Positions 16,541 through 57,768 of a DNA stretch of 64,000 nucleotides are shown piece by piece; the first letter of the stretch is position 1; every line of letters starts with the position of its first letter. The notes below the pieces were generated by a model, which did not search any database, was not told the DNA's origin, and worked only from the letters and a program-made list of their open reading frames with translations. This DNA is from Pristiophorus japonicus (taxonomy: Eukaryota). The stretch is taken from NCBI RefSeq assembly GCF_044704955.1, contig NW_027254394.1:310001-374000 (forward strand), written 5' to 3'. The translations under genes were made by a program, and so were the position numbers.

Positions 16541-16897
16541 CGGTTACATTCAGCCGGGTTCCATTTCCATAGATTGTTCCCCAAATACCACAAATATAGA
16601 CAGTGCTGTCTCTGTGCTGCACGCCTCTGATGGTCAGAATGTAGCTGTTAATGGAAACATCTCTGGAAAGCTCAAACTGTTTAAAGAAGCCATTGTTTTG
16701 TTAAACCTCGCCAGCTACAGAAAGAGTCAATAAAGGTTTGCTTTTCCCAATTGATGGGTGGTACCAGTGTACAGTATATTTATCCACACGGTCATTCACA
16801 TTGCTGCTCTCCAGGGCACAGCGAAACTACACCATCCCATCTTCGAGCATCGTCACAACTTCTGGGGACTGGATAAGAACCGGACTTGCCTTTAGAC
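16541..16897 (-). pseudogene. VJ-type Ig V-set exon, copy V1 (type A), pseudogene
   Basis: GLKASPVLIQSPEVVTMLEDGMV*FRCALESSNVNDRVDKYTVHWYHPSIGKSKPLLTLSVAGEV*QNNGFFKQFELSRDVSINSYILTIRGVQHRDSTVYICGIWGTIYGNGTRLNVT; phase-1 GTAAGT donor; stops at 16827-29 and 16701-03; acceptor AG mutated to GG. Confidence 0.93.
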
Positions 16898-17464
16898 CCG
16901 TGAATAGTAAATAACTGATGATCAGAACAGATGAGGAACCACAAGATATAATCAGTGCTCAACAGGTCGAGGGCAGGTCGAGACAGGGGCCCGGTTTGTG
17001 AGCAAATAGCAGAGAGGGGTTGGGGACTGGAACAGTGGGTTAGAGGCAGGCCTGAAGGCAAAACGTCACAAAGCATTTTAATCAACAGCAGGGCTTTTTT
17101 ATTGGGAGTTTGAAATATTTAAAATTTTTATGCCAGTTACGTTTTCAATTGTAAAAGTATTTTAAGTGAGTTGATCGGTTTACTACTTGTACTTTTTTAT
17201 TGTTAAAACTGCTGTTTCCCGTAGTTATGAAGTTACGTGAATGTTACTAAAAGGACTTTGGAGAAAACAAAATTTGATGCTCGTGTTCCCAGCAAAACCG
17301 CTACTCTCTCCCTCCCTGGTGATTCTCCGGTACAGCTCCCACCTTCCCTTCATTAAGTCGAATGAGGTGAGGGGAGGGGTCAGCAGCTGGATGGCCTCCC
17401 AGATTCTCAACTATGGAAGTGTTGCTGGCTGAAGTGTGGACCACTAAGGGGCACAATGGACATA

Positions 17465-20400
17465 TATGTTAGAGGGATCATCAAATGAGGCCATATGGGT
17501 CGAACTGAAAAGTTAAAAAGGGACGATCATACGGCTGGGAGTGTATTATCGACCCCCAAACAGTGGGAGGGAGATAGAGGAGCAAATATGTAGGCAAATT
17601 ACTGTGAAGTCCAAAAACCAAAGGGTAGTAATAGTCGGGGATTTTAACTATCCAAATATTGATTGGGACAAATTTAGTGTGAAGGCTATAGAGGGTGCGG
17701 AATTCTTGAAATGCATTCAAGAGAACTTTTTTTAGTCAGTCTGTAGCAAGCCCAACACGAGAGGGGGCTGACTTGGATTTAGTTTTGGGGAATGAAGCTG
17801 GGCAGGTTGAAGGGGGGAGAGCACCAGTGCCAGTGACCATAATTCAGTCAGATTCAAGTTGGTTACGGATAAGGACAAGGATAGGCCTGGAATAAAAGTT
17901 CCAAATTGGGGAAAAGCTAATTTTGTTAAGTTAAGGAGTGATTTGGCCAAAGTGGACTGGAAACAGCTACTTGTGGGTAAATCAGTATCGGAACAGTGGG
18001 AGTCATTTAAGGAGGAGATCTGGATGGCTCAGGCCAAATATGTGCCCTTAAAGAAAAAGGCTGGGAAAAATAATTCTCGAACCCCCTGAATGTCTAGGGA
18101 CTTACAGGGGAGGATTAAGAAAAAAAGTGATGCTTATGTCATATACCAACGGCTAAATACTTTAGAATCTTTAGAGGAATATAGAAAGAGGCAAAATTAA
18201 AAAGGATATTAGGAATGCTAAGAGAGAGCATGAGAAATTCTTGGCTGGTAAAATTAAGGAAAACCCCAAGATCTTCTATAAATATATTAAGAGTAAGAGG
18301 GTAACTAAAGAAAGAGTAGGGTCTATTAGAGACCATGAGGGTGATCTTTGTGTGGAGGCGGAAGATGTTGATAAGGTTCTTAACGAATACTTTGCATCTG
18401 TTTTCACAAAGGAAAGGGGTAATGCAGATACTGCTATCGAGGAGGAGTGTGATATTCTGGATGAAATAAATGGAGTGAGAGGGGAAGTATTAAAGGATTT
18501 AGCAGCTTTGAAAGTAGATAAGTCCCCAGGCCCGGATGAAATGCATCCCAGGCTGTTGAGCGAAGTAAAGGAGGAAATAGCAGGGGCCTTGACCATCATT
18601 TTCCAGTCGTCTTTGGATCTGGGCATGGTGGCGGAGGATTGGAGGACTGGTAATGTAGTACCCTTGTTTAAGGGAAAAAGGGATAGGCCGAGTAATTACA
18701 GGCCTGTCGGCCTAACCTCAGTGGAGGGAAAATTATTGGGAGAAGATCCTGAAAGACAGGATAAATCTGTATTTGGAAAGGCAAGAATTAATTAGGGACA
18801 GTTAGCACGGATTTGTTAAGGGAAGATCGTGTATTACTAACCCAATTGAATTTTTTGAGGAGGTAACCAAGAGGGTCGATGAGGGTAGTGCGTACGATGT
18901 AGTATATATGGACTTTAGCAAAGCTTTTGATAAGGTCCCACATGGTAGACTAGTCATGAAGGTTAAAGCCCATGGGATACAGTGGCAAGTTGGATCCAAA
19001 ATTGGCTTGGAGGTAGGAAGCAAAGGGTAATGGTTGATGGATGCTTTTGTGAGTGGAAGGTTGTTTCCAGTGGGGTTCCGCAGGGCTCAGTAGTGGGACC
19101 GTTGCTTTTTGTGGTATATATCAATGATTTAGATTTGAATATAGTGAGTATGATTAAGAAGTTTGCAGACGACACGAATATTGGCTGTGTGGTTGATAAT
19201 GAAGAGGAAAGTCATGGGCTGCAGGAGGATATCAATCTACGGGTCAGGTAGGCAGAGCAGTGGCAAATGGAATTCAATTCAGAGAAGTGTGAGGTGATGC
19301 ACTTTGGGAGGGCTAATAAGCAAAGGGTATACACATTAAGTGGTAGGTCACTTAATAGTGTGGATGAACAAAGGGACCTTGGAGTGTTTGTCCACAAATC
19401 CCTGAAAGTAGCAGGCCAGGTGGATAAGGTGGTTAAGAAGACATACAGAATGCTTGCCTTTATTGCCCGAGGCATAGAATATAAGAGCAGCGAGGTTATG
19501 CTTAAATTGTATAATACTTTGGTTAGGCCACAGCTGGAGTAGTGTGCGCAGTTCTGGTCACCGTATTATAGGAAGAACGTGATTGTACTAGAGAGGGTGC
19601 AGAGGAGATTTACTAGGATGCTGCCTGGAATGGAGAATCTTAGTTATGAGGACAGATTGCATAGACTGGGTTTGGTCTCATTGGAACAAAGGAGGTTGAG
19701 AGGAAACATCATCGAGGGGTACAAAATATTGAGGGGCCTGGACATAGTGGATAGTAAGGGCCGATTTCCATTGGTGGAGGGGTCTATTACGAGGGGGCAT
19801 AGGTTTAAGGTGGATGGTGGAAGGTTTAGAGGGGATTTGAGGGGGGCTTTTTTACGCAGAGGGTTGAGAGGATCAGTAACTCGCTGCCTGGAAGGGTGGT
19901 GGATGCAGAAACCCTCACCACTTTTAAGAGATGGTTGGATGGGCACTTAAAGTGCAGTAACCTGCAGGGTTACGGACCTCGAGCTGGTAATTGGGATTAG
20001 ACTGAAGTATACTGGTAGAAAGCCCCAAGGTAAAAGCACGGTAACAAATTGACCATAAAGTATTAAGACGACTGGCTTGTAACAAAACCCAGTCACGTTA
20101 ACACCAGATTGAGGCCTTGGGAATTGTACAACAAGATGTTGTAGCTATCTGTACAAGATATGGTGAAATGTAATTTTCTAAGAATGCAGACACACAATGA
20201 TTTAGTTCGAAGAATGCTGAGCTGCAGACTTTGCCTGTACGATAAGCTTGTGAGAATAAAGTATAAAAGACTGTAGCAGATGATTCCCCGGCGGAGTCGG
20301 ATCCAAGAGCAATCTTGGAAGGTTCTCTCCAGGCCTGCGAATAAAGACCGTTGTGAACCACCTACCGAAGTCTGACGTCTCTACCCGAGTGTCGATCTTG

Positions 20401-20826
20401 TCTATCACTTGGTCTGCTCCTCGGTCACCACAGACTGGATGACCTTTTGTTGGACGGAGCAGATATAATGGTCAGTACTGCAGGGAATCGAATACGGCCA
20501 GGGTGATCTCCTGGACTAGTTTCGATCGCCTGGATGGGTCGGAGAGGAATTTTCCCAGATTTTTTTCTCCCTAAATTGGCCTGGGTTTTTAAATCTGGTA
20601 TTTGCCTCTCCCAGGAGATCACATGGCTCCGGTTGGGTTGGAGTGTGGAATGTTTCAGTATAAGGGTAGTGAGGCGGACTGGTTGCTCTTTGCCTTTGTC
20701 ATTGTTCACAAGTTTATATGTAACCTTTAGGGCTGCTGACCATGGGCCGTGCGGCTCTCTGTCGGCCGGCGCGGACGCGATGGGCCAAAATGGCCTCGTT
20801 CTGTGCTGTAAATTTTTATGTTTCTA
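17465..20826 (+). mobile_element. CR1 LINE ORF2 (second subfamily) with insertions in its 3'UTR
   Basis: YYRPPNS, VGDFNYP, KSPGPDEMHPR, GVPQGSVVGP, KFADDT; 3' end GGGCCAAAATGGCC...TATGTTTCTA. Confidence 0.92.
20003..20431 (+). mobile_element. Solo LTR inserted in the CR1 3' end
   Basis: Starts TG and ends CACCA(CA); AGAC duplicated on both sides; TATAAAA at about 20262 and AATAAA at about 20340; removal restores GGGATTAGACTGGATG. Confidence 0.8.
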
Positions 20827-21887
20827 CTTACCTGAACGTGGAACTGGGAAAGGAGCAGGAATCCTTCTCCTGGTGCCACATTAACAGATACACGAGCCGC
20901 AGTAAGCCGCTCTCCCCCCCGGCAAGCCGCCTCTGTGATCACCGCCACTTGCTCTCCAGACCTCCCTTGATCACCGCCCATCTTGCTCCAACCACCCGAT
21001 CATCACCGCTCCACCTCTCCTGTGATAACCACCATCACCCCCTCCACGATCACCAGGTGTACCTCCCCAACCCTGTTATCACCATCACCCCCACCCTGAT
21101 CATCACTGCTCCTGCTCCCCACCTCCCCCCATGAACACCTCCACTCCCATCACCCCGAGACCCAGTATCGAACCCTGCACCCACCACGCGCCCCAAAACG
21201 GGTACGCCTGAATTTCTAGGCCTCTCAGACTGCAGACCGGTTATCAGCATGTAGGGAAGAATCACACTGACTGAGCACCTTCAATCTGGCTTCTTTTCGA
21301 TAACTCCTCACTAGCATAAGAATAAAATTCCCACCATCATTATTCCTGCTCATTTATTTTGGGTGAGCGACACCTTGAAATGGCTGTGCGGCCCATTCAA
21401 ATTTCCGTGCACGTGCCGTTTTTCCATTTGAAAGCAGCCACTAATGGCAAAAGTCCTGATTAGTACTTCCCTGATTCAAAGACACCAATAGGCAAGCAAA
21501 ATAATGGCAACTCTCAACAGCTGTACATTACATGGCCTTGTCAATGCTCTATCCGCCTCAGGAATACCTTCTTACCTCCTGTACGGTCACTTATAGTGGT
21601 GAGACGTACTTGGGGCAGAGGTTTGGGAAAATGGATCGGGGGAGCAGCCATTCCCATTAGACAGGTGGGCTCCTGACAGACTTCAAAGGAGTCTGGTGCT
21701 TTTTTGGGAATATAATTCAGGGGCACTTTTGTTGCAGTAGACTTGAGGCAGTCGCCCGAGAACTCAATTTACTCTGTTTATCGCCCTAAATTAGCTGATT
21801 ATTTGGAGGAAATCATACAGCGTATCACCACAAAGGAAATTAAAAGCTGCGACACCCAGAAAGAGGAAAACACCATTTCTAGATTCC

Positions 21888-22145
21888 CCGATACGGAGAA
21901 ACATCCTCTCTGCATCGACCCTGTCGAGCCCCCTCAGAATCTTATACGTTTCAATAAGATTACCTTTAATTCTTCTAAACTCCAAAGAGTCCAGGCCCAA
22001 ACTGCTCAACCTTACTACACAAGATAACCCCTTCATCTCGGGAATCAATCTGGTGCACCTTCTCTGAACAGCCTCCAATCCTTAAATACGGAGACCAAAA
22101 CTGTACGCAGTACTCCAGGTGTGGCTTCACCAACGCCCTGTGCCC
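21888..22145 (-). mobile_element. CR1 fragment
   Basis: KPHLEYCVQFWSP and LEFRRIKGNLIETYKIL. Confidence 0.85.
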
Positions 22146-22562
22146 TTCCAGAAGGACTTCCATACGTCATCGCTGGTTGCTCAGCGGCCCGAGCCACTAG
22201 CCGCGGGGGCAGCGTGCCATGATAGCGCCGCCACAAACTCCGGGCAATTTCCTGGGAGCCGATATCGCCCAGTGCGCCCCCCACCCCCGGCCAAAAAGTA
22301 TTTCACGCTCAGTTAGCAACCCCCGGGGCTCCCACGGGCGGGAAAAAGGGGAAATTCCGACGGCCAATTCCTGTTCATTCACACACTGTCTCCTGTTACC
22401 GTCCATGGTCCACAGGTGGCTCAATGTCACTTCACTTCCCCACATTGTTGTCACAGCTCCAATACAAGCGATCATATTGGGAGCTGGGTTGAAAGGATTG
22501 GCCCCACGTTCTCAGCCAGGACTGAGAGCCTGTGTGCTGCAGGAGGGAAGAGGGAGTTGTCC

Positions 22563-23495
22563 CATAGAAACAAAGAAAATAGGTGCAGGAGTAGGCCATT
22601 CGGCCCTTCGAGCCTGCATCATAGTTGATCATTCCCTCAGTACCCCTTTCCTGCTTTCTCTCCATACCCCTTGATCCCTTTAGCCATAAGGGCCACATCT
22701 AAATTCCTCTTGAATATATCCAACGAACTGGCATCAACAACTCTCTGCGGTAGAGAATTCCACAGGTTAACAACTCTGAGTGAAGAAGTTTCTCCTCATC
22801 TTAGTCCTAAATGGTCTACCCCTTATCCTAAGACTGTGTCCCCTGGTTCTGGACTTCCCCAACATCGGGAACATTCTTGCCGCATCTAACCTGTTCTGTC
22901 AGAATCTTATGTTTCTATGAAATCCCCTCTCATCCTTCTAAACTCCAGTGAATAGAGGCCCAGTCGATCCAGTCTCTCCTCAGATGTCAGTCCTGCCATC
23001 CCAGGAATCAGTCTGGTGAACCTTCGCTGCACTCCGTCTGTAAAGTCCTTACTCTACAGCATGAAACCACACGAGGCACATTCTGGGGACAAGGTCACTC
23101 TGACCGTAACTCTTTATTCACAGGACTCCAAAGACGCTGACCCTGCGTGGGACCTCCCTCTTTATACCTGTGTGTTCAGGTAAGGAGTGTCTCCCACTAG
23201 TTCACCCCTTGTGGTCAAGGTGTGCATCTAGGTTGAGTGTATCCAGTAATACAGTGGTGTTACATTCTGGTTACATACATGACACCCTCAATAGCAAGAA
23301 CGTCCCTTCTTCAGATTACAAGATCAAAACTGAACACAATATTCCAGGTGAGGCCTCACCAAGGCCCTGTACAACTGCCCCTATACTCAAATCCCCTAGA
23401 TATGAAGGCCAACATACCATTTGCCTTCTTCACCGCCTGCTGTACCTGCATGCCAACTTTCAATGACTGATGCACCATGACACCCAGGTCTCGTG
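22563..23495 (-). mobile_element. CR1 3' fragment interrupted by a solo LTR
   Basis: Reverse-complement CR1 3'UTR and RT C-terminus. Confidence 0.9.
23039..23284 (-). mobile_element. Solo LTR (246 bp, Gypsy-like)
   Basis: TG...CA ends; 5-bp TSD CCGTC/CCCTC; TATAAA and AATAAA on the minus strand; removal restores the CR1 sequence. Confidence 0.85.
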
Positions 23496-23496
23496 C

Positions 23497-24120
23497 CGGA
23501 GGCGGGTGGGGAGAGGCTGAGGGCCGGGGCCGGCCTGCAGTGAGCTGGGGGGCGGGTGGGGAGAGGCTGGGGGCCGGGGCCGGCCTGCAGTGAGCTGGGG
23601 GGCGGGCGGGGAGAGGCTGAGGGCCGGGGCCGGCCTGCAGTGAGCTGGGGGGCGGGCGGGGAGAGGCTGAGGGCCGGGGCCGGCCTGCAGTGAGCTGGGG
23701 GGCGGGTGGGGAGAGGCTGAGGGCCGGGGCCGGCCTGCAGTGAGCTGGGGGGCGGGCGGGGAGAGGCTGAGGGCCGGGGCCGGCCTGCAGTGAGCGGGGG
23801 GGGCGGGCGGGGAGAGGCTGAGGGCCGGGGCCGGCCTGCAGTGAGCGGGGGGCGGGCGGGGAGAGGCTGAGGGCCGGGGCCGGGGCCGGCCTGCAGTGAG
23901 CGGGGGGGCGGGCGGGGAGAGGCTGAGGGCCGGGGCCGGGGCCGGCCTGCAGTGAGCGGGGGGGCGGGCGGGGAGAGGCTGAGGGCCGGGAAGGGCCTGT
24001 AGTGAGCGGGGGGCGGGTGGGGAGAGGCTGAGGGCCGGGAAGGGCCTGCAGTGAGCGGGGGGCGGGCGGGGAGAGGCTGGGGGCCGGGGCCGGGGCCGGC
24101 CTGCAGTGAGCGGGGGGCGG
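23497..24120. repeat. GC-rich ~50-bp minisatellite, about 12 units
   Basis: GAGAGGCTGAGGGCCGGGGCCGGCCTGCAGTGAGCTGGGGGGCGGGCGGG recurs every 50 nt from 23511. Confidence 0.95.
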
Positions 24121-24329
24121 ACCCGGGCGGGGGATGGATGGATGGGGTTAGGGGGGAGTGGGCTCCAGGGGCCGAGGTGGTGCGGGGGGGGGTGAGTGTG
24201 TGGCGGCAGTGGGCTGGAGGAGGCAGTGAGCGGGGCGGGGATAAACTCCCTCCAACACTCCCCAGTCAGGGCAGTAACTGCGGCCAATGGCAATGAACCA
24301 TGACACTGCAGGCCCTCAGCCTCTGCCCC

Positions 24330-24545
24330 CCGGCCCCCAGCCTCTCCCCGCCCGCCCGGGCCCGGGCTCAGCCTCCGCTCACCGGCCGCCATCGCCTCCA
24401 ACCGCGGCGCCGCTCCGCTGTTCCCGCCTCATCCACTCGCCATTCTGATTGGTCCCCAGCGCCGCGCGGGGCGGGGCGGGGTGGGGCCGGTGGGCGGGGC
24501 CCCCGCGCGGGGCGGGGACGGTTGGGCGCGCGGGAAGTTTGAACC
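24330..24545. promoter_or_regulatory. CpG-island promoter with GC boxes, CCAAT box, E2F sites and a CDE/CHR-like element
   Basis: TTCCCGCC at 24421, ATTGG at 24448, several GGGGCGGGG, and GCGCGGGAAGTTTGAA at about 24528-24543; undepleted CpG. Confidence 0.65.
24383..24392 (-). CDS. Candidate first coding mini-exon (M-A-A-, phase 1) of an unidentified gene
   Basis: gcgATGGCGGCCG|GTGAGC: strong Kozak context plus a consensus donor directly downstream of the CpG promoter; no exon 2 identified. Confidence 0.45.
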
Positions 24546-24989
24546 GGATGACCCAAATATACAAACAAACCATTTGTGGTCAATCACAGCATGAGAAGGA
24601 ATAGAAGCGGGAAATCAAATCAATGAGTTGTGTGCAGCAACAATCCTGAAAGGAAGTGTGAGCTTGGACAGATAAACAAGGGCAAGGAGCAGCTTTAAAT
24701 ACGGCCAAAAGATAAAGTCTGTCAATGCTGGGAGTGTGGGGCTTACTGAGGGAATGAGAAACAATGGTGGCACGGATTTAACAGCACTGACAAACCTGGC
24801 TGGGAATTGTGCAGGAGTGCAACATAAACATCAGATTGCAATGTTTTCAGGAGGGGCAGAACAGGAGCAAGAGTGCAAGACAGGGTGAAGGAGGGAATAG
24901 ATTCTGCAGGGAGCTGATGTGCACAAAAAATAAGTTCAGACAAAAAAAAGACAACAGCAGAAAAGAACCGAGATATAAGGAAAGTTGCG

Positions 24990-26140: not shown

Positions 26141-26668
26141 TCAAGAAGAACAACACAAAGACATTACGGTTACAATGTACAACGTCACAGGAGATTGGCT
26201 AATTTTTAAAAAGAACCTTGTCTTGTGCAATGAGGATTGGGCGGATTCTACACTGGGTGTCAGCTCACAACAGCAGTTTTACGCAAGTTGAAAATCTTAC
26301 GTATTTGATTCAATGTATATTTTAACGTATGTGTTGATGTTAGATGAAGAAACCAGATGTGAATTGGTTTGCCTGGGCCTATCATAGCTACTGCTGACTG
26401 CACATCTTAATTTGTAGTTTTTGGAGCTTCGTGTTTTGGTGTTTTTCATTCCTGCTTGTTACTTGCTGATTCTCACGTTCTCCACCTGTGCAGTTGTGAT
26501 CTGTTGGTGGTTGATGAATATGAAATTTAATCCTATCGGCTGGGAGAACTTTGCATATGAGAAGGTGTGACAGCCAAAGTGTGACACAGGAAATGTGACA
26601 GTCAAACAGGAAATGCATCCTGTGCACCATTTTTAATAGGTTGCCAGTGGATGTCCTGTGTTACTCAC

Positions 26669-36700: not shown

Positions 36701-37059
36701 AATTATGAGGGGCCTAGATAGAATAGATAGGAAGGACCTGTTTCCCTTTGCAGAGGGGTTAACAACCAGGGGACATAGATTTAAAGTAATTGGGAGGAGG
36801 TTTAGAGGAGATATTAGGGGAAATGTCTTTACCCAGAGGGTAGTGGGAATCTGAAACTCTCTGCCTGAAAGAGTGGTAGAGGCAGGAACCCTCACCACAT
36901 TTAAAAAATACTTGTATGTGCACTTAAAGTGCCGTAACCTACAGGGCTACGTTCCAAGAGCTGGAAAGTGGGGTTAGGCTGGATAGCTCTTGGTCGGCCG
37001 GTGCGGACACGATGGGCCAAAATAACCTCCTTCCATGCTGTAAATTTCTATGATTCTAT
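33778..37059 (+). mobile_element. CR1 LINE (second subfamily) split by a younger CR1
   Basis: RT motifs at 33778-35107 resume at 36548 (KDVIALERVQRR). Confidence 0.9.
35108..36547 (+). mobile_element. Nested 5'-truncated CR1
   Basis: RT plus 3'UTR flanked by a GAAAG duplication (35103-35107 and 36548-36552). Confidence 0.9.
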
Positions 37060-37502
37060 ACGTAGCTTTCCCTTGATTATTATGGTCTGTTTTCCCAGAA
37101 TTAATGTGACATAGCTCTTGTTGGAAAACATCAGAGCCAATAATTTACTTAACCCTTGAAACCAATGGAAAATGTTGAATCAGAAAATGAAATGTGCTGG
37201 CTACTTTTAACCTGGTTACAATACTCAGTGTGAACAAAGGAGAGGATTTGTGTGTGTGCGGCTGTGGGTGTTAATGATTTAGTAAAAGCTGTTCATCACC
37301 ACACAACATTCAATCCATCACCGTACTGGGCTACTGATGGCCCGTTACCACACTGGGCCCATTGCTCTCGGTCTATTCCAGGCAGTGTTGCTGCTATGGA
37401 TCCATTTTAGGTGAAGGTTTCCCACAGTTTCACCATTTATACAAAAAGTGACAGATATCACACGCTTTGCCTCTACCCTTGCCAAGTGTGAGAGAAACAT
37501 AC

Positions 37503-37545
37503 CTTTAAGCTCACTGTATATGGACTGATCCGATTCCTTCAATGC
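37503..37545 (-). CDS. Candidate 43-nt cytoplasmic-tail exon with an ITIM (ALKESDQSIYSELK)
   Basis: Acceptor ctctgttccctgttAG and donor AAG|GTATGT; S-I-Y-S-E-L fits the (S/I/V/L)xYxx(I/V/L) consensus; unique sequence on the same strand as the V exons. Confidence 0.55.
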
Positions 37546-37566
37546 CTAACAGGGAACAGAGCAATG

Positions 37567-40359
37567 ATAGAAACATAGAAACATAGAAAACAGGTGCAGG
37601 AGTAGGCCATTCGGCCCTTCGAGCCTGTACCACCATTCAATAAGATCTTGGCTGATCATTCACCTCAGTACCCCTTTCCTGCTTTCTCTCCATATCCCTT
37701 GACCCCCTTTAGCAGTTAGGGCCATATCTAACTCCCTCTTGAATATATCTAACGAACTGGCATCAACAACTCTGTGTGGTAGAGAATTCCACAGGTTAAC
37801 AACTCTCTGAGTGAAGAAGTTTCTCCTCATCTCGGTCCTAAATGGCTTACCCCTTATCCTTAGACTGTGACCCCTGGTTCTGAACTTCCCCAACATTGGG
37901 AACATTCTTCCTGCATCTAACCTGACTAGTCCCGTCAGAATTTTATATGCCTCTATGAGATTCTCCCCTCATTCTTCTGGATCCCGGGAATCAGTCTGGT
38001 GACCCTTCGCTGCACTCCCTCAATAGCAAGCACGTTCCTCAAATTAGGAGACCAAAACTGCACACAATACTCAAGGTGTGGTCTCACCAAGGTCCTGTAG
38101 AACTGCAGCAAGACCTCTCTGCTCCTATACTCAAATCCCCTTGCTATGAAGGCCAGCATGCCATTTGCTTTCTTTGCTGTCTGCTGTACCTGCATGCCTA
38201 ACTTCAAAGACTGATGTACCATGATACCCAGGTCTCATTGTACCTCCTCTTTTACTAATCTGTCACCATTCAAATAATAATCTACCTTCCTGTTTTTGCC
38301 ACCAAAGTGGATAACCTCACATTTATCCACATTATACTGCATTTGCCCATTCACCTAACCTGTCCAAGTCCCCTGCAGCCTCTTAGCATCCTCTTCGCAG
38401 CTCGCTCTGCCACCCATCTTAGTGTCATCTGCAAACATGGAGATATTACATTCAATTCCTTCGTCAAAGTCATTAATGTATATTGTAAATAGCTGGGGTC
38501 CCAGCATTGAACCCTGCAGCAGCCCACTAGTCACTGCCTGCCATTCTGAAAAGGACCCGTTTATTCCCACTCTTTGCATCCTGTCGGCCAACATCTCTAT
38601 CCACGTCAATATATTACCCCCAATACCATGTGCCTTAATTTTGCACACTAGTCTATTGTGTGGGACATTGTCAAAAGCCTTTTGAAAGTCCAAATACATC
38701 ACATCCACTTATTCTCCCTTATCCACTCTACTAGTTATATCCTCAAAAAGCTCGAGAAGATTTGTCAAGCTTGATTTCCCGTTCATAAATCCATACTGAC
38801 TTGGTTCGATCCTGTCACTGCTTTCCAAATGCGCTGCTATTTCATCTTTAATAATTGATTCCAGCATTTTCCCCACCACCGATGTCAGGCTAACCGGTCT
38901 ATAATTCCCTGTTTTCTCTCCCTCCTTCTTTAAAAAGTGGTGTTACATTAGCTACCCTCCAATCCATAGGAACTGAATCAGAGTCCATGGAATGTTGGAA
39001 AATGACCACCAATGCATCTTCTATTTCTAGAGCCACTTCCTTAAGTACTCTGGAGTGCAGACTATCAGGACCTGGGGATTTATCGGCCTTCAGTCCCTTC
39101 AATTTCCCTAACACCATTTCCTGACTAATAAGGATTTCCCTCAGTTCCCCCTTCTCGCTAGACCCTCTGTCCCATAGTATTTTCGGGAGGTTATTTGTGT
39201 CTTCCTTAGTGAAGACAGAACCAAAGTATTTTTTCAATTGGTCTGCCATTTCCTTGTTCCCCATTATGGATTCCCCTGATTCTGACTGCAAGAGACCTAC
39301 ATTAGTCTTCACTAATATTTTTCTCTTCACATATCTGTAGATGCCTCTGCAGTCAGTTTTTATGTTCCCTGCAAGCTTACTCTCATACCCTATTTTCCCC
39401 CTCCTAATTAAACCCTTAGTCCTCCTCTGCTGAATACTAAATTTCTCCCAGTCCTCAGGTTTGCTGCTTTTTCTGGCCAATTTATATGCTTCTTCCTTGG
39501 ATTTAACACTTTCCCTAATTTCCCTTGTTAGCCACGGCTGAGCCACCTTCCCTTTATTTTTACGCCACACTGTGATGTACAATTGTTGTAGTTCATCCAT
39601 GTGATCTTTAAATGTCTGCCATTGCCTATCCACCGTCAACCCTTTAAGCATCGGTCGCCAATCTATCCTAGCCAATTCACGTCTCATACCGTCGAAGATT
39701 CCTTTCCTTAAGTTCAGAACCCTAGTCTCTAAATTAACTGTGTCACTCTCCATCTTAATGAAGAATTCTACCATATTATGGTCACTCTTCCCCAAGGGGC
39801 CTCGCACGACCAGATTGCTAATTAATCCTCTCTCATTACACAAGACCCAGTCTAGGATGGCCTGCTCTCTTGTTGGTTCCTCGACATATTGTTCTAGAAA
39901 ACCGTCCCTTATACACTCCAGGAAATCCTCCTCCACAGTATTGCTACCAGTTTGGTTAGCCCAATCAATATGTAGATTAAATTCACCCATGATAACTGCT
40001 GTAACCTTATTGCACGCGTCCCTAATTTCCTGTTTGATGCCATCCCCAACCCCCATACTACTGTTTGATGGCCTGTACACAACTCCCACGAACGTTTTCT
40101 GCCCTTTGGTTCTTCGCAGCTCTACCATATAGATTCCACATCATCCACGTTAATGTCCTTCCTTACGATTGCGTTAATCTCCTCTTTAACCAGTAACGCT
40201 ACCCCACCTCCTTTTCCTTCCTGTCTATCCTTCCTGAATATTGAATACCCCTGGATATTGAGTTCCCAGCCTTGGTCACCCTGGAGTATGTCTCCGTAAT
40301 CTCAATTACATCATATCCATTAACATCTATCTGCGCAGTTAATTCGTCCACCTTATTGC
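37567..40359 (-). mobile_element. CR1 LINE ORF2 (5'-truncated)
   Basis: ORF 40128-38899 (endonuclease/tether), RT fragments, and an (ATAGAAAC)n tail at 37567. Confidence 0.95.
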
Positions 40360-40468
40360 ATTAAGTTTACCAGCGGTTTTTGTGATATTAATCAGATACT
40401 GATCAATAAATCCATGTGTAAGAGGTTATTCCTTCTATTCAGGTTAATATAATGTAAACTGTATTTAC

Positions 40469-40813
40469 TGGTTACATTGAGCTGGGTTCCGTTCCCGCTG
40501 ATATCGCCCCACACTTTACAGTAATAGGCGACAGTGTCACTGGGCTGCACTTCTGTGACTGTCAGAATGAAGCTGTCATTGGAGGTGTCTCTGGAAGGCT
40601 GGAGATGGTCAGTGGAACCTGGGCTCCCGCGTGTGCTGCCACTTGCCTCATGTGTTAAAACCCACTCCATATCTTGCCCCAGGAGTTGCCGGTACCAGTG
40701 GACATCGGTGTCACTCACTCTGGCGTTCCACATGGTGCATTGTAACCGTGCCGTGTGACCCTCTGTGACAAGTTCCAGGCTCGGAGACTGGGTCAGGACA
40801 GGGACAACTGCAC
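40469..40813 (-). CDS. VJ-type Ig V-set exon, copy V2 (type B), intact reading frame
   Basis: 345 nt, phase 1 at both ends, acceptor ccattaaAG, donor GTAAAT; GAVVPVLTQSPSLELVTEGHTARLQCTMWNARVSDTDVHWYRQLLGQDMEWVLTHEASGSTRGSPGSTDHLQPSRDTSNDSFILTVTEVQPSDTVAYYCKVWGDISGNGTQLNVT; canonical B-strand Cys, C-strand Trp, DxxxYYC and GxGT. Confidence 0.93.
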
Positions 40814-43005: not shown

Positions 43006-43006
43006 A

Positions 43007-44329: not shown

Positions 44330-44936
44330 TGTATTAATTCTTGGGGGTCACGAGACACCAGAGGGCACCATCGTCGGAGGTCATCAGGCTGTATGCATGT
44401 GGCATGTGTGCTTGGTCACCTGTATATAAGCTGGGTGTCTTTGTCACGGTGGCACTCTTGGGCTGGAATAATGATGGATCAAGTTGCACCTGAGTGAGTT
44501 TCCAGTAACCAGACTCTTGCGTCATTACAATTGGCGACGAGGTAATTTAAGAACCTTCGCATGCACAATGAGCACTGTTGGAATCCTGGAGAGATTCGTG
44601 GAGGGCGAGGATTGGGTGGATTTTGTCGACCGCCTGGATCAATATTTTGTGGCCAATGGCATGGAGGCAGAGGCCTACGCAGTTAAGTGCAGGGCAGTTC
44701 TCCTCACCGTTTGTGGTCTGAAAATTTACGGCTTCATGAAGAATCTTCTCTCGTCTGTACATCCGGTGGAAAAGGTACAAGGAATTGTGTACATTGGTGG
44801 GTAACCATCTGAAACCAAAAGAGGGGATCATCATATCACACTACCGTTTCTACACACATGTTCATGCTGAGAGCCAGGACGTGTTGGGATTTGTCGCCGA
44901 CCTGTGACGTCTTGCTGAGCCGTGTAAGTTCGGGAA

Positions 44937-47425: not shown

Positions 47426-49439
47426 AGACATGCGGCGTGATGTCTCAGTGATAGGCATCAGCCATGATGCGATGCTCAGGAAGCTGTTGGCTGCAGATAC
47501 GCTGGATTTGAAAAAGGCCATCGCGACTGCCCAGGTATGCATGACAACAGATGAGAATTTGAGGCAGATATCATCGATGAGTCGGAGTTCCATGGCAAGT
47601 ACTGTACACAAGATGGCATTGTCTTCGGGCAGAGTTGCTTCCCTGAAACCTGCCGCTGCTCAGAGTCCGCCAACTGGTTCGATCCAGATTTCACCCTGTT
47701 GGTGATGTGGGGGCAATTATCGGCCTCATCAGTGTCGGTTTATGCAATGGATGTTTAAAAGTGGGGCACCTTCACAGGATGTGTCCACAACGGAGCAAGC
47801 ATGGTGCGGCTCACCACGTGGTGGATGAAGATCAGTTCAGTGATGGCCCGGATACACAACCCGAGGAGGAAGTGAATGGACTGTATTCGTTCCTGAGCAA
47901 GAGCCAGCCGAATAGTGGTTAATGTGAAGCTGCATGGCGTGCGTGTATCAATGGAGCTGGACACGGGTGTGAGCCAGTCGATAATGAGCCAAAGGACATT
48001 CGACAAGCTGTGGGACACTAAGGCTGCGAAACCAAAGCTGAGTCCAGTCAATGCCAGGTTGTGTACTTGCACTAAGGAACTCATACCTGTGCTCGGCAAT
48101 GCAGCAATCGAGGTGTCATATGATGGTGTGGTTCACGAGCTACCATTATGGATCATCCCAGGTCATTATCCAACGCTGTTCGGCAGGAATTCACTTGAGA
48201 AAATCAAGCTGAATTGGAATGATGTCAAGATGTTGTCCTGGGTAGATGATACTTAGTGTGCTCAAGTATTGAAAAAGTTTCCTTCTTTGTTTGAACCGGG
48301 CATTGGTAATTTTACAGATTCACCTGGACTCGAATGCAAGGCCTGCCTATCACAAAGCTCGGTCTGTTCCGTACATGATGAGGGAGAAGGTTGAAATCGA
48401 GCTTGACAGACTCCAGCATGAAGGGATCATATCACCGGTCAAGTTTAACGAGTGGGCCAGTCCCATTATTCCTGTGTTGAAGAGTGATGGCATTGTCAGG
48501 ATTTGTGGAGACAACAAGGTTACGATTAACCGATTTTCAAAACAGGATCAGTATCCATTACCGAGGACCGATGACCTGTTCGCCATGCTAGCTGGTGGAA
48601 AGTCGTCCACGAAACTGGATCTGACATCGGCCTATATGACCCAGGAACTTGTCACCACTTCGAAGAAACTCACCTGCATCAACACCCATAAAGGACTGTT
48701 CGTCTACAACAGGTGTCCTTTTGGGATTTGTTCAGTTGCAGCCATATTTCAGAGGACTGTGGAGAGTTTACTGAAGTCCGTTCCTAGGAAAGATGTTTCT
48801 TGTTGTAGTAGATGCATATTCTAAGTTGTTATTTCGTCTTCCAGCACATCGACAGCTAACATTGAGAGCCTTCGTATCATGTTTGCTACTCATGGTTTGC
48901 CTGACATTGTTGTGAGCGACAATGGATCTTGCTTCTCAAGTCTTGAGTTCCAGGAGTTCATGAAACTCAATGACATCAGACATGTGAGATCAGCTCCTTC
49001 AAGCCTGCTTCTAATGGTCTAGCAGAGCGTGCCATTCAAATGATCAAGCAAAGTATGAAACATGTAACTCAGGGCTCACTGCAGAGACGGTTGACATGTA
49101 TATTGCTCAGTTACAGGTCAAGACTTCATACACTTACTGGGGTTCCTCCTGCTGAACTACTGATGAAGAGAAATCTCAAGACCAGGCTTTTTCTTCATCC
49201 TGATTTGAATGATCATGTTGAAAACAGACGTCAAAGTCAGCAATGGTGTCATGATCGTGTTGCCATGTCACGTGACATCTCGGTCAACGATCCAGTTTAT
49301 GTACTGAACTATGGTCAAGGTCCAAAGTGGATCGCCAGCACTGTTACAGCCAAGGAGGGTAACAGAGTGTTTATTGTCATGCTCAAAAATGGGCAAACAT
49401 GCAGGAAACACCTTGACCAGGTTAAACTGCGGCACACGG

Positions 49440-52400
49440 ATGAGTTCCTACGAAACGAAGTTAAGGAGCTCGGAGCTAAATTAAAAAGTAGGACCTCAAA
49501 AGTAGTAATCTCGGGATTGCTACCAGTGCCACGTGATAGTCAGAGTAGGAATCGCAGGATAGCGCAGATGAATACGTGGCTTGAGCAGTGGTGCAGCAGG
49601 GAGGGATTCAAATTCCTGGGTCATTGGAACCGGTTCTGGGGGAGGTGGGACCAGTACAAACCGGACGGTCTGCACCTGGGCAGGACCGGAACCAATGTCC
49701 TAGGGGGAGTGTTTGCTAGTGCTGTTGGGGAGGATTGAAACTAATATGGCAGGGGGATGGGAACCAATGCAGGGAGACAGAGGGAAACAAAAAGGAGGCA
49801 AAAGCAAAAGACAGAAAGGAAAAGTGGAGGGCAGAGAAACCCAAGGCAAAGAACAAAAAGGGCCACTGTACAGCAAAATTCTAAAAGGACAAAGGGTGTT
49901 AAAAATAACAAGCCTGAAGGCTTTGTGTCTTAATGCAAGGAGTATCCGCAATAAGGTGGATGAATTAACTGTGCAAATAGATGTTAACAAATATGATGTG
50001 ATTGGGATTACGGAGACGTGGCTCCAGGATGATCAGGGCTGGGAACTCAACATCCAGGGGTATTCAACATTCAGGAAAGATAGAATAAAAGGAAAAGGAG
50101 GTGAGGTAGCATTGCTGGTTAAGGAGCAAATTAAGGCAATAGTTCGGAAGGACATTAGCTTGGATGATGTGGAATCTATATGGGTAGAGCTGCAGAATAC
50201 CAAAGGGCAAAAAACGTTAGCGGGAGTTGTGTACAGACCTCCAAACAGTAGTAGTGATGTTGGGGAGGGCATCAAACATGAAATTAGGGGTGCGTGCAAT
50301 AAAGGTGCAGCAGTTATAATGGGTGACTTTAATATGCACATAGATTGGGTTAACCAAGCTGGAAGCAATACGGTGGAGGAGGATTTCCTGGAGTGCATAA
50401 GGGATGGTTTTCTAGACCAATATGTCGAGGAACCAACTAGGGGGGAGGCCATCTTAGACTGGGTGTTGTGTAATGAGAGAGGATTAATTAGCAATCTCGT
50501 TGTGCGAGGCCCCTTGGGGAAGAGTGACCATAATATGGTGGAATTCTGCATTAGGATGGCGAATGAAAGAGTTAATTCAGAGACCATGGTCCAGAACTTA
50601 AAGAAGGGTAACTTTGAAGGTATGAGGCGTGAGTTGGCTAGGATAGATTGGCGAATGATACTGAAGGGGTTGACTGTGGATGGGCAATGGCAGACATTTA
50701 GAGACCGCATGGATGAACTACAACAATTGTACATTCCTGTCTGGCGTAAAAATAAAAAAGGGAAGGTGGCTCAACCGTGGCTATCAAGGGAAATCAGGGA
50801 TAGCATTAAAGCCAAGGAAGTGGCATACAAATTGGCCAGAAATAGCAGCGAACCCGGGGACTGGGAGAAATTTAGAACTCAGCAGAGGAGGACAAAGGGT
50901 TTGATTAGGGCAGGGAAAATGGAGTACGAGAAGAAGCTTGCAGGGAACATTAAGACGGATTGCAAAAGTTTCTATAGATATGTAAAGAGAAAAAGGTTAG
51001 TAAAGACAAACGTAGGTCCCCTGCAGTCAGAATCAGGGGAAGTCATAACGGGAAACAAAGAAATGGCGGACCAATTGAACAAGTACTTTGGTTCGGTATT
51101 CACTGAGGAGGACACAAACAACCTTCCGGATATAAAAGGGGTCGGAGGGTCTAGTAAGGAGGAAGAACTGAGGGAAATCCTTATTAGTCGGGAAACTGTG
51201 TTGGGGACATTGATGGGATTGAAGGCCGATATATCTCCAGGGCCTGATGGACTGCAGCCCAGAGTACTTAAGGAGGTGGCCTTGGAAATAGTGGATGCAT
51301 TGACAATCATTTTCCAACATTCCATTGACTCTGGATCAGTTACTATGGAGTGGAGGGTAGCCAATGTCACCCCACTTTTTAAAAAAGGAGGGAGAGAGAA
51401 AACAGGGAATTATAGACCGGTCAGCCTGACATCGGTAGTGGTAAAATGATGGAATCAATTATTAAGGATGTCATAGCAGTGCATTTGGAAAGAGGTAATA
51501 TGATAGGTCCAAGTCAGCATGGATTTGTGAAAGGGAAATCATGCTTGACAAATCTTCTGGAATTTTTTGAGGATGTTTCCAGTAGAGTGGACAAGGGAGA
51601 ACCAGTTGATGTGGTATATTTGGACTTTCAGAAGGCTTTCGACAAGGTCCCACACAAGAGATTAATGTGCAAAGTTAAAGCACATGGGATTGGGGGTAGT
51701 GTGCTGACATGGATTGAGAACTGGTTGTCAGACAGGAAGCAAAGAGTAGGAGTAAATGGGGACTTTTCAGAATGGCAGGCAGTGACTAGTGAGGTACCGC
51801 AAGGTTCTGTGCTGGGGCCCCAGCTGTTTACATTGTACATTAATGATTTAGACGAGGGGATTAAATGTAGTATCTCCAAATTTGCGGATGACACTAAGTT
51901 GGGTGGCAGTGTGAGCTGCGAGGAGGATGCTATGAGGCTGCAGAGCGACTTGGATAGGTTAGGTGAGTGGGCAAATGCATAGCAGATGAAATATAATGTT
52001 GATAAATGTGAGGTTATCCACTTTGGTGGTAAAAACAGAGAGACAGACTATTATCTGAATGGTGACAGATTAGGAAAAGGGGAGGTGCAAAGAGACCTGG
52101 GTGTCATGGTACATCAGTCATTGAAGGTTGGCATGCAGGTACAGCAGGCTGTTAAGAAAGCAAATGGCATGTTGGCCTTCATAGCGAGGGGATTTGTGTA
52201 CAGGGGCAGGGAGGTGTTGCTACAATTGTACAGGGCCTTGGTGAGGCCACACCTGGAGTATTGTGTACAGTTTTGGTCTCCTAACCTGAGGAAGAACATT
52301 CTTGCTATTGAGGGAGTGCAGCGAAGGTTCACCAGACTGATTCCCGGGATGGCGGGACTGACCTATCAAGAAAGACTGGATCAACTGGGCTTGTATTCAC

Positions 52401-52812
52401 TGGAGTTCAGAAGAATGAGAGGGGACCTCATAGAAACGTTTAAAATTCTGACGGGGTGAGACAGGTTAGATGCAGGAAGAATGTTCCCAATGTTGGGGAA
52501 GTCCAGAACCAGGGGACACAGTCTAAGGATAAGGGGGAAGCCATTTAGGACCGAGACGAGGAGGAATTTCTTCTCCCAGAGAGTGGTGAACCTGTGGAAT
52601 TCTCTACCACAGAAAGTTGTTGAGGCCAATTCACTAAATATATTCAAAAAGGAGTTAGATGAAGTCCTTACTACTAGGGGAATCAAGGGGTATGGTGAGA
52701 AAGCAGGAATGGGGTACTGAAGTTTCATGTTCAGCCATGAACTCATTGAATGGCGGTGCAGGCTTGAAGGGCCGAATGGCCTACTCCTGCACCTATTTTC
52801 TATGTTTCTATG
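49440..52812 (+). mobile_element. Young CR1 (end of ORF1 plus nearly intact ORF2) nested in Gypsy integrase
   Basis: 578-aa endonuclease/tether ORF, then RT with a frameshift at about 51440 and stops at 51980 and 52457. Confidence 0.96.
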
Positions 52813-53297
52813 TTGCTATGAACTGGAAGCGAGTGAGGAAGATGCAGTCAGTGACCAACCAACCATTGTTCACTCATCAGAGGACTCTGCTGACATTACT
52901 GACTCTGAACCTTCAGTCTCTGATGTGGTCATGACCACTCCCATCAGCTCGGCTACTCAGCCCTCAGTCTCAACGGACTCAGAACGCTCGCCCAGAGACA
53001 AAGTTGAACTGAGACGATCAACTCGTGAGAGGAAAGCCCCAGACCATCTTAATTTGTAAAAAAAAAACTTGTTAAGATTTTAAAAAGGAAATGTTGTTAT
53101 GTATTAATACTTGAGGGTCACCAGACACCAGAGGGCGCCGCGGTCAGAGGTCATTGGGCTGTACACATGTGGCATGTGTGCTTGGTCACCTGTATATAAG
53201 CTGGGTGTCTTTGTCACGCTGGCACTCTTGGGCTGGAATAAAGAAGGATCAGGTTGCACCTGAGTGAGTTTACAGTAAACAGACTTGAGTCATTACA

Positions 53298-55385
53298 ATT
53301 TTCTAAATGTCCTGCTACTACTTCCTTAATAATAGATTCCAGCATTTTCTCAATGACAGATGTTAGGCTTACTGACCTATAATTTCCTGCTATCTGTCTC
53401 CCTCCTTTCTTAAAAAGGGGTGTTCCATTTGCAGTTTTCCAATCCTTGGGACCTTTCCAGAATCTAGGGAATTTTGAAACATTACAACCAATGCATCCAC
53501 TATCTCTGCAGCCACTTCTTTTAAGACCCAAGGATGCAGGCCATCAGGTCCAGGGGACTTGTCAGTCTTTAGTCCCATTAGTTTGCCTATTACTTTTTCT
53601 GTAGTGATGATAATTGTTTTTATTTCCTCCCGACCCTTTGCCCTTGATTTTCTATTAGTAGGATGCTTTTCATGTCTTCTACCGTAAAGACAGATACAAA
53701 TATTTGTTCAAAGTCTCTGCCATTTCCTTGTTTCCCATTATTATTTCCCCAGTCTCACCCTCTAAGGGACCAATATTTACTTCAGCTACTCCCTTCCTTT
53801 TTATATACGTGGCGTGGTGACCCCGACCAGCGAGGAAATACCAGCAGCAGGTCGGGGCCATAAAAGGCGAGCAGCGAGCGACCCTGGGAGCAGCGTGGTG
53901 ACATGCCACTTCAGGGAGCAGTGCGAGCTGGTGCAAGAGGGCAACAGCAGTGCAGCGGGCAACTGGATTGGACATCACCAAGGTCCAGGTCGGTGATTGG
54001 AACGTGGGCAGGTACAGCAGCAGCGGCGAGTTTGGGACGCAGGAGCGGTGAGTTATCGTGGAGTGATGTGATCGAGGCCCAGGAGAGGCGTGAGTTCGGG
54101 GCCCAGCAGAGGCGAGGGCCCTGGGGCAGCAACTTCTTCACTCAGAGAATTGTTAACCTGTGGAATCCTCGACCGCAGAAAGCTGTTGAGGCCAGTTCAT
54201 TAGATATATTCAAAAGGGAGTTAGATATGGCCCTTACGGCCGAAATGGCTTTCCCCTTATTCTTCGACAGTGACTGGTTCTGGAACTCCCCAGCAATGGG
54301 AACATTCTTTCTGCCTCTAACCTGTCCAATCCCGTCAGAATTTTATATGTTTCTATGAGATCCCCTCTCATTCTTCTAAACTCCAGTGGATACAAGCCCA
54401 GTTGATCCAGTCTCTCCTCATAGGTCAATAAGGGGTATGGAGAGAAAGCAGGAAAGGGGTACTGAGGTTGAATGATCAGCCATGATCTTGTTGAATGTCG
54501 GTGCAGGCTCGAAGGGCCGAATGGCCTGCTCCTGCACCTAATTTCTATGTTTCTATGTTTCTACGTTTAACATGTAGTTCGGGACCAGGAATATCAGGTC
54601 TTTCATTGAAACACCTGTGAACTCATCCTTTTTTAGTGTGGAAGTGGGTCATCCTCGATACGAGGGACCGCCTAAGAGAGATATACTTGTAGAAGCTCTT
54701 ACCGTCTGTTTTTATATTATTTGCTAGTTTACTCTCATAATCTATTTTATCCTTCTTTATTCATTTTTTAGTTATCCTTTGGTGGTTTCTAACATTTTGC
54801 CAATCTTCGAGCCTACCACTAATCTTTGCAACATATCTGCCTTTTCTTTCAAATTGATACCATCCTTAACTTCCTTAGTTAGCCACGGATGGTTCATCCT
54901 TCTCATTGAGTCTTTCTCAATGGAATATATCTTTGTCGAGAATTATGAAATATCTCCTTAAATGTGTGCCACTGCTTATCTACTGTCATACCTTTTAATC
55001 TAATTTCCCACTCCACATTAACCAATTCTGACTTCATACCTTTGTAATTGCCTTTATTTAGGCTTAAGATATAGTTTCAGATCCAAGTTTCAAACTGAAT
55101 GTGAAATTTTATCATGTTATGCTCACTCTTCCCGAGAGGATCCTTTACTGTGAGGCAATCAATTAATCCTGTCTCATTGCACCTTACCAGATCTAAAATA
55201 GCTTGTTCCCTGGTTGGTTCTACAATGTATGGTTCTAAGAAACTGTCACGAATACACCCTATGAACTAGTTGTCACAGCTACCTTTGCCAATTTGATTTG
55301 TTGAATCTATATGAAGATTAAAATTGCCCACGATTATTGCAGTACCTCTCTTAAAAGCCCCATTATTTCTTAATTTATACTCTGT
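53298..55385 (-). mobile_element. CR1, 5' half of the copy split by Gypsy, with a nested RTE-type SINE (about 53810-54680) that contains CR1 pieces
   Basis: KSPGPDGLHP and upstream ORF2 motifs; 53810-54125 and 54565-54680 resemble 41235-41825. Confidence 0.85.
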
Positions 55386-55389
55386 CCTG

Positions 55390-56127
55390 CACTCCAAGGT
55401 CCCTCTGTTCCTCTACACTTCTCATTGTCCTACCATTTATTGTATATTCCCTTGCCTTGTTAGCCCTTCCCAAATGCATTACCTCACACTTCTCCGGATT
55501 GAATTCCATTTGCCACTGTTCTGCCCACGCGACCAGTACATTGATATCTTTCCTACAGTCTACAGCTTTCTTCTTCATTATCAACCTTACAAAAAATGGT
55601 AGTATCATCTACAAACTTCTTAATCATACCCTCTATATTCAAGTCTAAATCATTGATATATACCACAAAAAGCAAGGGAACTTGTACTGAGCCCTGTGGA
55701 ACCCCACTGGAAATAGCCTTGCAGACACAAAAGCACCCATCGACCATTACCCTTTGCTTCCTTCCTCCAAGCCAATTTTGGATCCAACTTGTCACTTTGC
55801 CCTGTATCTCATGGGCTTTACCCTTCATGACCAGTCTACCATGTGGGACCTTATCAAAAGCCTTGGTAAAACCCATATATACTACATCGTACGCACTACC
55901 CTCATCAAACCTCCTTGTTACCTCCACATAAATTCAGTCAAGTTAGTCAGACACTATCTTCCCTCAAAAAATCCATGTTGACTGTCGTTGATTAATCTGT
56001 GTATTTCGAAATGAAGATTTATCCTAGCCCTCAGAATGTTTTCCCATAATTCTCCCACCACCGACTTTAGGCTGATAGGCCTGCAATTCTCGGTCTATCC
56101 CTTTCTCATTTTTTAAACAACAGTATA
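55390..56127 (-). mobile_element. CR1 RT fragment (second subfamily)
   Basis: [24 protein letters not shown]. Confidence 0.9.
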
Positions 56128-56990
56128 ATGGGCAGGGGGAGAGAGAGAGAGAGAGAGACAGTGAACAGGCGGGGAGAAAGAGAGAGGCCACGATTGGGCA
56201 GGTGAGAGAGAAAGGCCATGATTGGGTGGAAGAGAGAGAGAGACCACGATCGGGTGGGGGGGAGAGAGAGAAAGGCCATGATTGGGCGGGAGAGAGATAG
56301 AGACCATGAACAGGTGGGGAGAGAGAGAGGGCTCGATTGGGTGGGGAGAGAGAGAGAGAGGCCATGATCGGGCGAGGGGGAGAGAGAGAGAGGCCACGAT
56401 TGGGCAGGGGAGAGAGAGAGGCCACGATCGGGCAGGGAGAGAGAGAGGCTACAATCGGGCAGGGAGAGAGAGAGGCTACGATCGGGTGGGGGAGAGAGAG
56501 AGGCCACGATCGGGCAGGGAGAGAGAGAGGCTACGATCGGGCAGGGAGAGAGAGAGGCCACGATTGGGCAGGGGAGAGAGAGAGGCTACGATCGGGCAGG
56601 GAGAGAGAGAGGCCATGATCGGGCAGGGACAGAGAGAGAGGCCACGATCGGGCAGGGGAGAGAGAGAGGCCACGATCGGGCAGGGGAGAGAGAGAGGCCA
56701 CGATCGGGCAGGGGAGAGAGAGAGGCTACAATCGGGCAGGGAGAGAGAGAGGCTACGATCGGGCAGGGAGAGAGAGAGGCCACGATTGGGCAGGGGAGAG
56801 AGAGAGGCTACGATCGGGCAGGGAGAGAGAGAGGCTACAATCGGGCAGGGAGAGAGAGAGGCTACGATCGGGCAGGGAGAGAAAGAGGCCATGATTGGGC
56901 GAGGGAGAGGGGGGAGAGAGAGAGAGAGAGACCACGATCGTGTGGGGGGAGGTGCGGGAGGGGAGGGAGAGAGAGGGCATGATTGGGGGA
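56128..56990. repeat. Purine-rich ~27-28 bp minisatellite (GGCCACGATCGGGCAGGGGAGAGAGAGA), about 30 units
   Basis: Direct tandem units with a variable (GA)n stretch. Confidence 0.95.
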
Positions 56991-57419
56991 GGCGGAAGGG
57001 AAAGGAGAGCGTGCGCTATCTGGAGGACTTGGGCATGTTGGGGACAATTTTCCCATAATTAACACTAACACCCACCCCTCCGATGCTCTCCCGCACTGCG
57101 TGGGGGGGGCAGAGGGTGGCAGGGGGTTAATATCAGGGTCGATTTCATGGTTTAGAGCTCTCTAAATTATTCCTATTACTGCACTTTTCCCTCAACATGT
57201 ATTTTACCGTTGAATCCTGTGTGTGAGATTTTGTCCCACCATGTGCTCACAATTATTTGTTCTGTTAAAAACAAATTGAGTTTGGCCCAGATTTCACCCT
57301 CCATTCTGTAGTTAAAACTCAGTGTTACTGTAAAAGGAACAGCTTGTATAACATTTAAACAAGATGCTTGTACATAACATTATTAGGTATAAAACCAATA
57401 TAACATAGAAGGTACTTAC

Positions 57420-57768
57420 TGGTTACTTTCAGCCGGGTTCCATTTCCATAGATTGTTCCCCAAAATACCACAGATATAGACCGCGCTGTCTCTGGGCTCC
57501 ACGCCTCTGATGGTCAGAATGTAGCTGTTACTGGCAACATCTCTGGAGAGCTGAAACTGCTCAGAGAAACCGTGTGATTGGTCAACCCTGCCATCTGCAC
57601 AATGAGTAAATATTTTGTGTTTCCTATCCTGTGAGAGGTACCAGTGTACAGTATATTTATCCACATTCACATTGCTGCTCTCCAGGGTACACCAAAACTT
57701 CACCGTCCCACCCTCGGGCACCGTCACAACTTCTGGGGACTGGATAAGAACCGGACTTGCCTTTAGAC
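57420..57768 (-). pseudogene. VJ-type Ig V-set exon, copy V3 (type A); +1 frameshift in CDR3 (real or a sequencing error)
   Basis: Acceptor ttcacAG, donor GTAAGT; 349 nt (3n+1); GLKASPVLIQSPEVVTVPEGGTVKFWCTLESS..VHWY..SRDVASNSYILTIRGVEPRDSAVYICGI, then an extra T (A-run 57462-57465), then WGTIYGNGTRLKVT. Confidence 0.92.

Follow-up and report, generated by a model that had tools for sequence, protein, structure and literature searches.

A 64,000-nucleotide stretch of the Pristiophorus japonicus genome (NCBI RefSeq assembly GCF_044704955.1, contig NW_027254394.1, positions 310,001–374,000, hereafter the window) carries three immunoglobulin (Ig) V-set exons in which the variable (V) and joining (J) parts are fused in the germline, and the question that they raise is how such VJ exons arose. 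Receptors with a fused VJ are commonly taken for remnants of the gene that RAG split. The initial annotation, made from the sequence alone, likewise preferred a resemblance to the VJ ancestor that preceded RAG insertion. Our analysis makes the reverse story the likelier one. The closest relatives of the exons are V domains of the Ig light chain sigma-2, a lineage with members split by recombination signal sequences (RSSs), although the tree is still compatible with a pre-RAG origin. On sequence comparison, the V domains of this family more likely go back to a sigma-2-lineage Ig light chain that had been joined in the germline than to a pre-RAG relic. The window itself contains dead duplicates from a large cluster of tandem-VJ membrane receptors.

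The three exons lie on the minus strand exactly where the initial annotation placed them, are in phase 1 at both ends, and each leads to a GxG-containing G strand and a splice donor. The described run of V straight into a J-like strand stands with respect to the strand and donor; in the exon at 57420–57768, the frame is broken by an insertion at ∼57463. The joins are indeed free of RSSs: a heptamer and nonamer with a 12/23 spacer were detected near none of the three window exons and none of four other joined exons, and three of three rearranging controls from the same genome were positive. The exons do not represent three separate, functional single-VJ genes, as had been proposed. Those at 57420–57768 (domain 1, D1) and 40469–40813 (domain 2, D2) follow one another in a single multi-domain gene, the exon at 16541–16897 is the D1 of another, and two of the three are broken (one by stops and a lost acceptor, the other by the frameshift). 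Loss of the canonical J phenylalanine is not a general trait either, as Phe before GxG is kept in 47 of 65 D1 domains across species. The only open exon, D2 at 40469–40813, matches the Pfam V-set domain with an E value of 1.9e-14.

When used as a query, D2 matched 103 related shark and ray proteins and one Ig light chain, and its closest named relatives (89–93% identity) are labelled Pristiophorus japonicus. The family proteins are type I membrane proteins built of VJ domains in tandem, which fall into three recurrent types (D1, D2, and D3) and number up to nine per model, and the order D1-D2-D3-transmembrane (TM) segment-tail is conserved in sharks and rays. A structure model of one of them (P0038) consists of three beta-sandwich domains and a TM helix. 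Every species-labelled member is chondrichthyan, and family V exons are also present in chimaera; the family spans sharks, rays, and chimaera. An intact gene with a leader, D1, D2, D3, TM, and a tail of the immunoreceptor tyrosine-based inhibitory motif (ITIM) type lies on the same contig as the window, 34–108 kb to its left. The names given to family proteins by NCBI are arbitrary or 'uncharacterized'. The sigma-2 constant (C) domain had no match among the 103 family proteins, and no C exon was found in the window or its flanks; a precomputed PF07654 label on two of the 103 proteins was unsupported by blastp. Contigs of relatives from two studies (their RNA origin is a guess) cover the D2 exon only and, beyond its donor, carry on as TM or D3 sequence, as read from loose ends that were translated by hand. 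These spliced D2-TM and D2-D3 joins, the missing C exon, and the conserved domain order speak against the idea that the exons are orphan germline-joined light-chain pseudogenes and that the multi-V models are annotation artefacts chaining them. That idea draws on the two broken window exons and on automatic models that chain V segments in real Ig and T-cell receptor (TCR) loci (e.g. P0106 and P0121), but it is already largely refuted and we consider it highly improbable.

Among the 75 family proteins with a TM, 19 have a tail with an immunoreceptor tyrosine-based activation motif (ITAM), 45 have ITIMs or immunoreceptor tyrosine-based switch motifs (ITSMs), and 11 have neither; a charged TM residue was found in none of the 75. 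The genome of P. japonicus contains 18 ITIM-type and 4 ITAM-type TM exons, with both types on one contig (C3961). By analogy with paired receptors, the tails are predicted to activate (ITAM) or to inhibit (ITIM/ITSM) a leukocyte. SHP-type phosphatases would be recruited by the ITIM forms and Syk-type kinases by the ITAM forms, in the manner of paired leukocyte receptors, and the distal D1 would likely bind a variable ligand, with D2 and D3 as a stalk that extends it. The earlier description of a multigene family that does not rearrange and encodes predicted innate receptors resembling antigen receptors is supported.

The affinity to sigma-2 is apparent from several comparisons, in which the sigma-2 label was anchored by a skate type I light chain protein and the synonym table in PMC5985310. 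A family profile scored five of six sigma-2 V domains at 105–112 bits and the sixth at 81 bits. All sigma, lambda, kappa, heavy-chain (VH), TCR, and NITR-like V domains, classes that we presumed from motifs, scored ≤66 bits (NITR-like 29–40 bits). D2 is 46% identical to sigma-2, versus 29–36% to the other classes. The framework spacing of D2 and D3 (13/58) is that of 46 of 48 sigma-2 V domains, and that of D1 differs (17/55–59). The distance from Cys to GxG is fixed at 7 in all family domain types, and one junction length shared by D1, D2, and D3 is expected from a single joined ancestor. In an unrooted IQ-TREE phylogeny of 73 hand-picked rows (chosen from 680 extracted domains plus genomic V exons; 115 columns), the family is monophyletic (support 99/95) and lies inside a sigma-2-like group (90/76). 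Topology tests rejected a clade of all Ig light chains that excludes the family (p 0.009) and did not reject one that includes it (p 0.25); the grouping of the family with sigma-2 gave p 0.24. The domains adjoin a light-chain clade, which goes half way towards the outcome that the initial annotation had named as contrary to its view; splicing to a constant light-chain (CL) exon was not observed. Placement of an unrelated long-branch sequence (P0194) within the family by FastTree was rejected, and this sequence was left out of the IQ-TREE set. All matches from Foldseek and from a sequence search of the PDB were engineered multi-V antibodies, which are uninformative on origin, and ESM Atlas yielded generic V-set clusters besides the cluster of the family itself.

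According to PMC5985310 and PMC2193156, horn shark has a split sigma-2, the sigma-2 of skate, gar, coelacanth, and turtles is joined, and germline joining by RAG-like activity is documented in nurse shark. Under a light-chain origin, a joined VJ exon, phase 1 at both ends, would have lost its C exon, been duplicated in tandem, and come to lie ahead of TM and tail exons, all before chimaeras and elasmobranchs diverged.

Several points weigh against this reading. The family falls outside sigma-2 proper (96/90), and the 90/76 node is not strongly supported, with only 115 columns. NKp30, PRARP, UrIg, and CD8 sequences were outside the tree set. Neither a sigma-2-like group that leaves the family out (p 0.195) nor a clade of the family with NITR-like V (p 0.18) was rejected, so the root may lie on the family branch. 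The 13/58 spacing also occurs in shark VH and in one TCR-gamma-like V. No promoter relic was seen: an octamer lies within 600 nt upstream of neither of two family leaders, and one occurs somewhere in the stretch at 8 of 10 Ig V loci. Ligand binding and signalling are predicted functions.

Some of these points favor the view of the initial annotation, in which the family V is a never-split relic that branched before RAG insertion and resembles sigma-2 because the latter is a slow, early-branching light chain. The joins carry no RSS, an unrooted tree cannot fix the root, and sharks have non-rearranging VJ relics, UrIg and UrIg2 (PMC12227049). However, the root of all Ig and TCR V domains would then sit inside the sigma-2-like group, which holds an RSS-bearing V (L042). 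Moreover, the family is 46% identical to sigma-2, more than sigma-2 is to kappa, lambda, VH, or TCR (29–38%), species-labelled members are confined to chondrichthyans, and the cluster lies on chromosome-scale sequence C9, not on the IgH-bearing C23. We therefore regard a pre-RAG relic as unlikely. Less likely still is that the proteins are shark orthologues of a named VJ family (PRARP, NITR, SIRP, or NCR3-like) or descend from a non-rearranging sigma-2-like VJ-C1 gene such as L041. Chicken PRARP combines a VJ domain with ITIM/ITSM tails, and the joined VJ-C1 genes L041, P0158, and P0191 adjoin the family. The family, in contrast, has neither a C1 nor an I domain and no charged TM, NITR-like V domains score poorly with its profile, and its NCBI names are arbitrary or 'uncharacterized', as noted above.

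The preferred light-chain derivation concerns a family that is strongly expanded in the P. japonicus genome. Its loci occupy C9 (0.6–6.3 Mb) and many unplaced contigs, some of whose copies may be haplotype duplicates; one other D2 in the genome is 100% identical to that of the window. Ig V genes are located elsewhere, with IgH on C23, lambda-like on C8, and sigma-like on C18. An open frame is present in 29 of the 41 D1 exons that were examined, and these 29 include 26 distinct ones. In D1, the ratio of nonsynonymous to synonymous differences (pN/pS) is 4.1 in the C′-C″ region, which corresponds to complementarity-determining region 2 (CDR2), 2.1 in CDR3 plus the G strand, and 0.9–1.0 in the frameworks, compared with 0.44 in D2; these are pairwise counts on related paralogues, without a significance test, and gene conversion could inflate them. 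A GULO-type exon is located at 6.96 Mb on C9, and the bamboo shark GULO gene has a LOC number neighboring that of the family, which suggests conserved synteny. Searches of the same genome for MHC class II beta and PLAC8 gave no matches, both without a positive control, so that the MHC was not located. In the accessible part of a bamboo shark single-cell supplement (PMC11372145), LOC122553189, one number from the family gene LOC122553190, is listed as a marker of myeloid cells/hematopoietic stem cells; its membership in the family could not be shown. At one C9 locus (L057; G000:C9, 4.44 Mb), a D2 continues directly, with no intervening intron, into an open frame of 3056 codons, and a similarly long model exists in Rhinoraja (P0071). 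Elsewhere, two identical leader exons (L045 and L047; G000:C3782:286573 and 303087) both lie upstream of one intact D1.

The features of the window are listed in Table 1. In the tract from 37503 to 40813, LINE (long interspersed nuclear element) remains follow D2, and this arrangement recurs in three of three other fetched copies (L128–L130; 97–99.9% identical). Beyond the LINE lies a tail exon that had been overlooked in the initial annotation; the surrounding 37059–37575 is 95% identical to an intact gene locus (L056), and the acceptor of this exon is out of frame with the phase-1 donor of D2. No leader exon was found elsewhere in the window or in 30 kb beyond, apart from the uncertain remnant in Table 1. 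The frameshift and the deletion therefore make the window gene dead. Compared with the GTAAGT-class majority, its D2 has eight nonsynonymous and four synonymous changes. The pair of stops in the divergent D1 (TAG and TAA) is carried by five matches in the genome. Eighteen D1 matches stop at one and the same residue, and six of the other 17 were fetched, all six being frameshifted. The unit was likely inactivated first and amplified by segmental duplication afterwards. No RNA run holding a high share of the window was found, and none of the runs holding part of it is recorded as RNA. GC-rich tandem repeats with long repetitive open frames occur at 12450–13750, 23350–24430, and 56100–56980, and 44690–44750 on the minus strand matches the first exon, lacking a signal peptide, of a database model (P0015) that joins it to D2, probably a prediction artefact.

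Table 1. Remnants of family genes and associated elements in the window
Feature	Position	Strand	Remarks
D1 (membrane-distal) fused VJ pseudo-exon	57420..57768	-	+1 frameshift (1-nt insertion) at ~57463, ahead of the J-like strand; V out of frame with the J-like part
D2 fused VJ exon, open frame	40469..40813	-	donor GTAAAT; most copies GTAAGT
LINE remains (endonuclease and reverse transcriptase pieces)	37576..40357	-	at the site held in the intact ITAM-type gene by the TM exon and cytoplasmic exons 1 and 2
Cytoplasmic exon, second ITAM half (..DQSIYSELK), last tail exon	37503..37545	-	phase-0 acceptor
Possible decayed, inverted leader-exon remnant, uncertain	22489..22550	+	73% over 62 nt
Divergent D1 VJ pseudo-exon of second gene	16541..16897	-	two in-frame stops (TAG at 16829-16827, TAA at 16703-16701); acceptor AG lost (CGG where CAG expected)

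Light-chain-like loci were also encountered outside the family. With a white-shark sigma-2 V query, no typical sigma-2 V was found among the 150 scored of 793 candidates, the best matches in the assembly being family D2 exons (52%); this absence may reflect loss or an assembly gap. One locus (L041; G000:C23, 8.90 Mb) combines a germline-joined VJ with one C1 exon and represents a distinct sigma-2-like lineage, which is also present in Heptranchias, Stegostoma, and Chiloscyllium; no octamer was found in its stretch. At another (L042; G000:C23, 3.51 Mb), a light-chain-like V carries a 12-RSS; this V differs from typical sigma and sigma-2 and lies loosely near the joined sigma-2 of turtle and caecilian. 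A germline-joined VDJ heavy-chain V exon (L083) lies at 66.13 Mb on G000:C23.

The family looks undescribed. The initial annotation proposed a candidate undescribed family, and we found no named-family match or family description in the searched literature, although one may exist in subscription papers or in supplements outside the search; the window that prompted the proposal contains its debris. Should the family derive from a light chain that was joined again, the usual direction would be reversed for at least one fused-VJ family, and Lee et al. 2000 (PMC2193156) would be borne out in their prediction that rejoining can turn an Ig gene into a new receptor. Adaptive immunity would then have seeded innate immunity, and a joined VJ, which need not be a pre-RAG relic, would by itself be weaker evidence of antiquity. 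The family would also give cartilaginous fishes a candidate leukocyte receptor complex with activating and inhibitory forms, whose ligands, tails, and copy-number variation are open to test. In our judgment, it is somewhat more likely than not that more than 400 million years ago RAG-joined light-chain DNA was recycled to form a paired receptor complex, KIR/LILR-like and common to all cartilaginous fishes, with dozens of genes in this species and a diversifying former CDR2 loop.

Among known systems, Ig light chain sigma-2 (also sigma-cart, type I, or NS5) has the nearest V sequences and shares with the family a split leader and a single joined VJ exon, as well as the PSRD motif and framework spacing of D2 and D3. 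The family differs in lacking a CL exon, in its tandem V domains on a TM with a signalling tail, in its fixed and short junction, and in forming its own clade outside sigma-2 proper. It also lacks the leader octamer; an octamer promoter upstream of the leader is a light-chain feature. PRARP, NKp30/NCR3, and NITR resemble the family in having a joined VJ on a membrane receptor, with tyrosine motifs in PRARP and NITR, but the family has several tandem V domains, neither a C1 nor an I domain, and no charged TM; PRARP and NKp30 are set apart here by their generally known features and not by direct comparison. NCR3/NKp30 has a single V domain and a charged TM residue, whereas family domains are in tandem and their TMs uncharged. 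NITRs have a V of the NITR type plus an I domain, whereas all family domains are V-set, and the low bit scores given above are for V domains labelled NITR-like by motif. PRARP has a single VJ, a C1 or degenerate C1, and an ITIM/ITSM tail, so that its tail type matches the family and its domain content does not; joined sigma-2-like V domains, used as search seeds, brought up no PRARP-labelled sequence. Paired ITAM/ITIM receptors (CEACAM1/CEACAM3, teleost NILT, LILR, and SIRP) are alike in their similar ectodomains with opposing tails, clustering, birth-and-death expansion, and variable distal domain. The family stands apart in its light-chain-like VJ ectodomain and in an activating form that has its own ITAM and an uncharged TM. 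Finally, according to PMC12227049, UrIg and UrIg2 likewise have VJ in one exon, a split leader, and no rearrangement, but UrIg has C1 domains and is linked to the MHC or to the antigen-receptor complex; the family is devoid of C1 and lies on a different chromosome from IgH.

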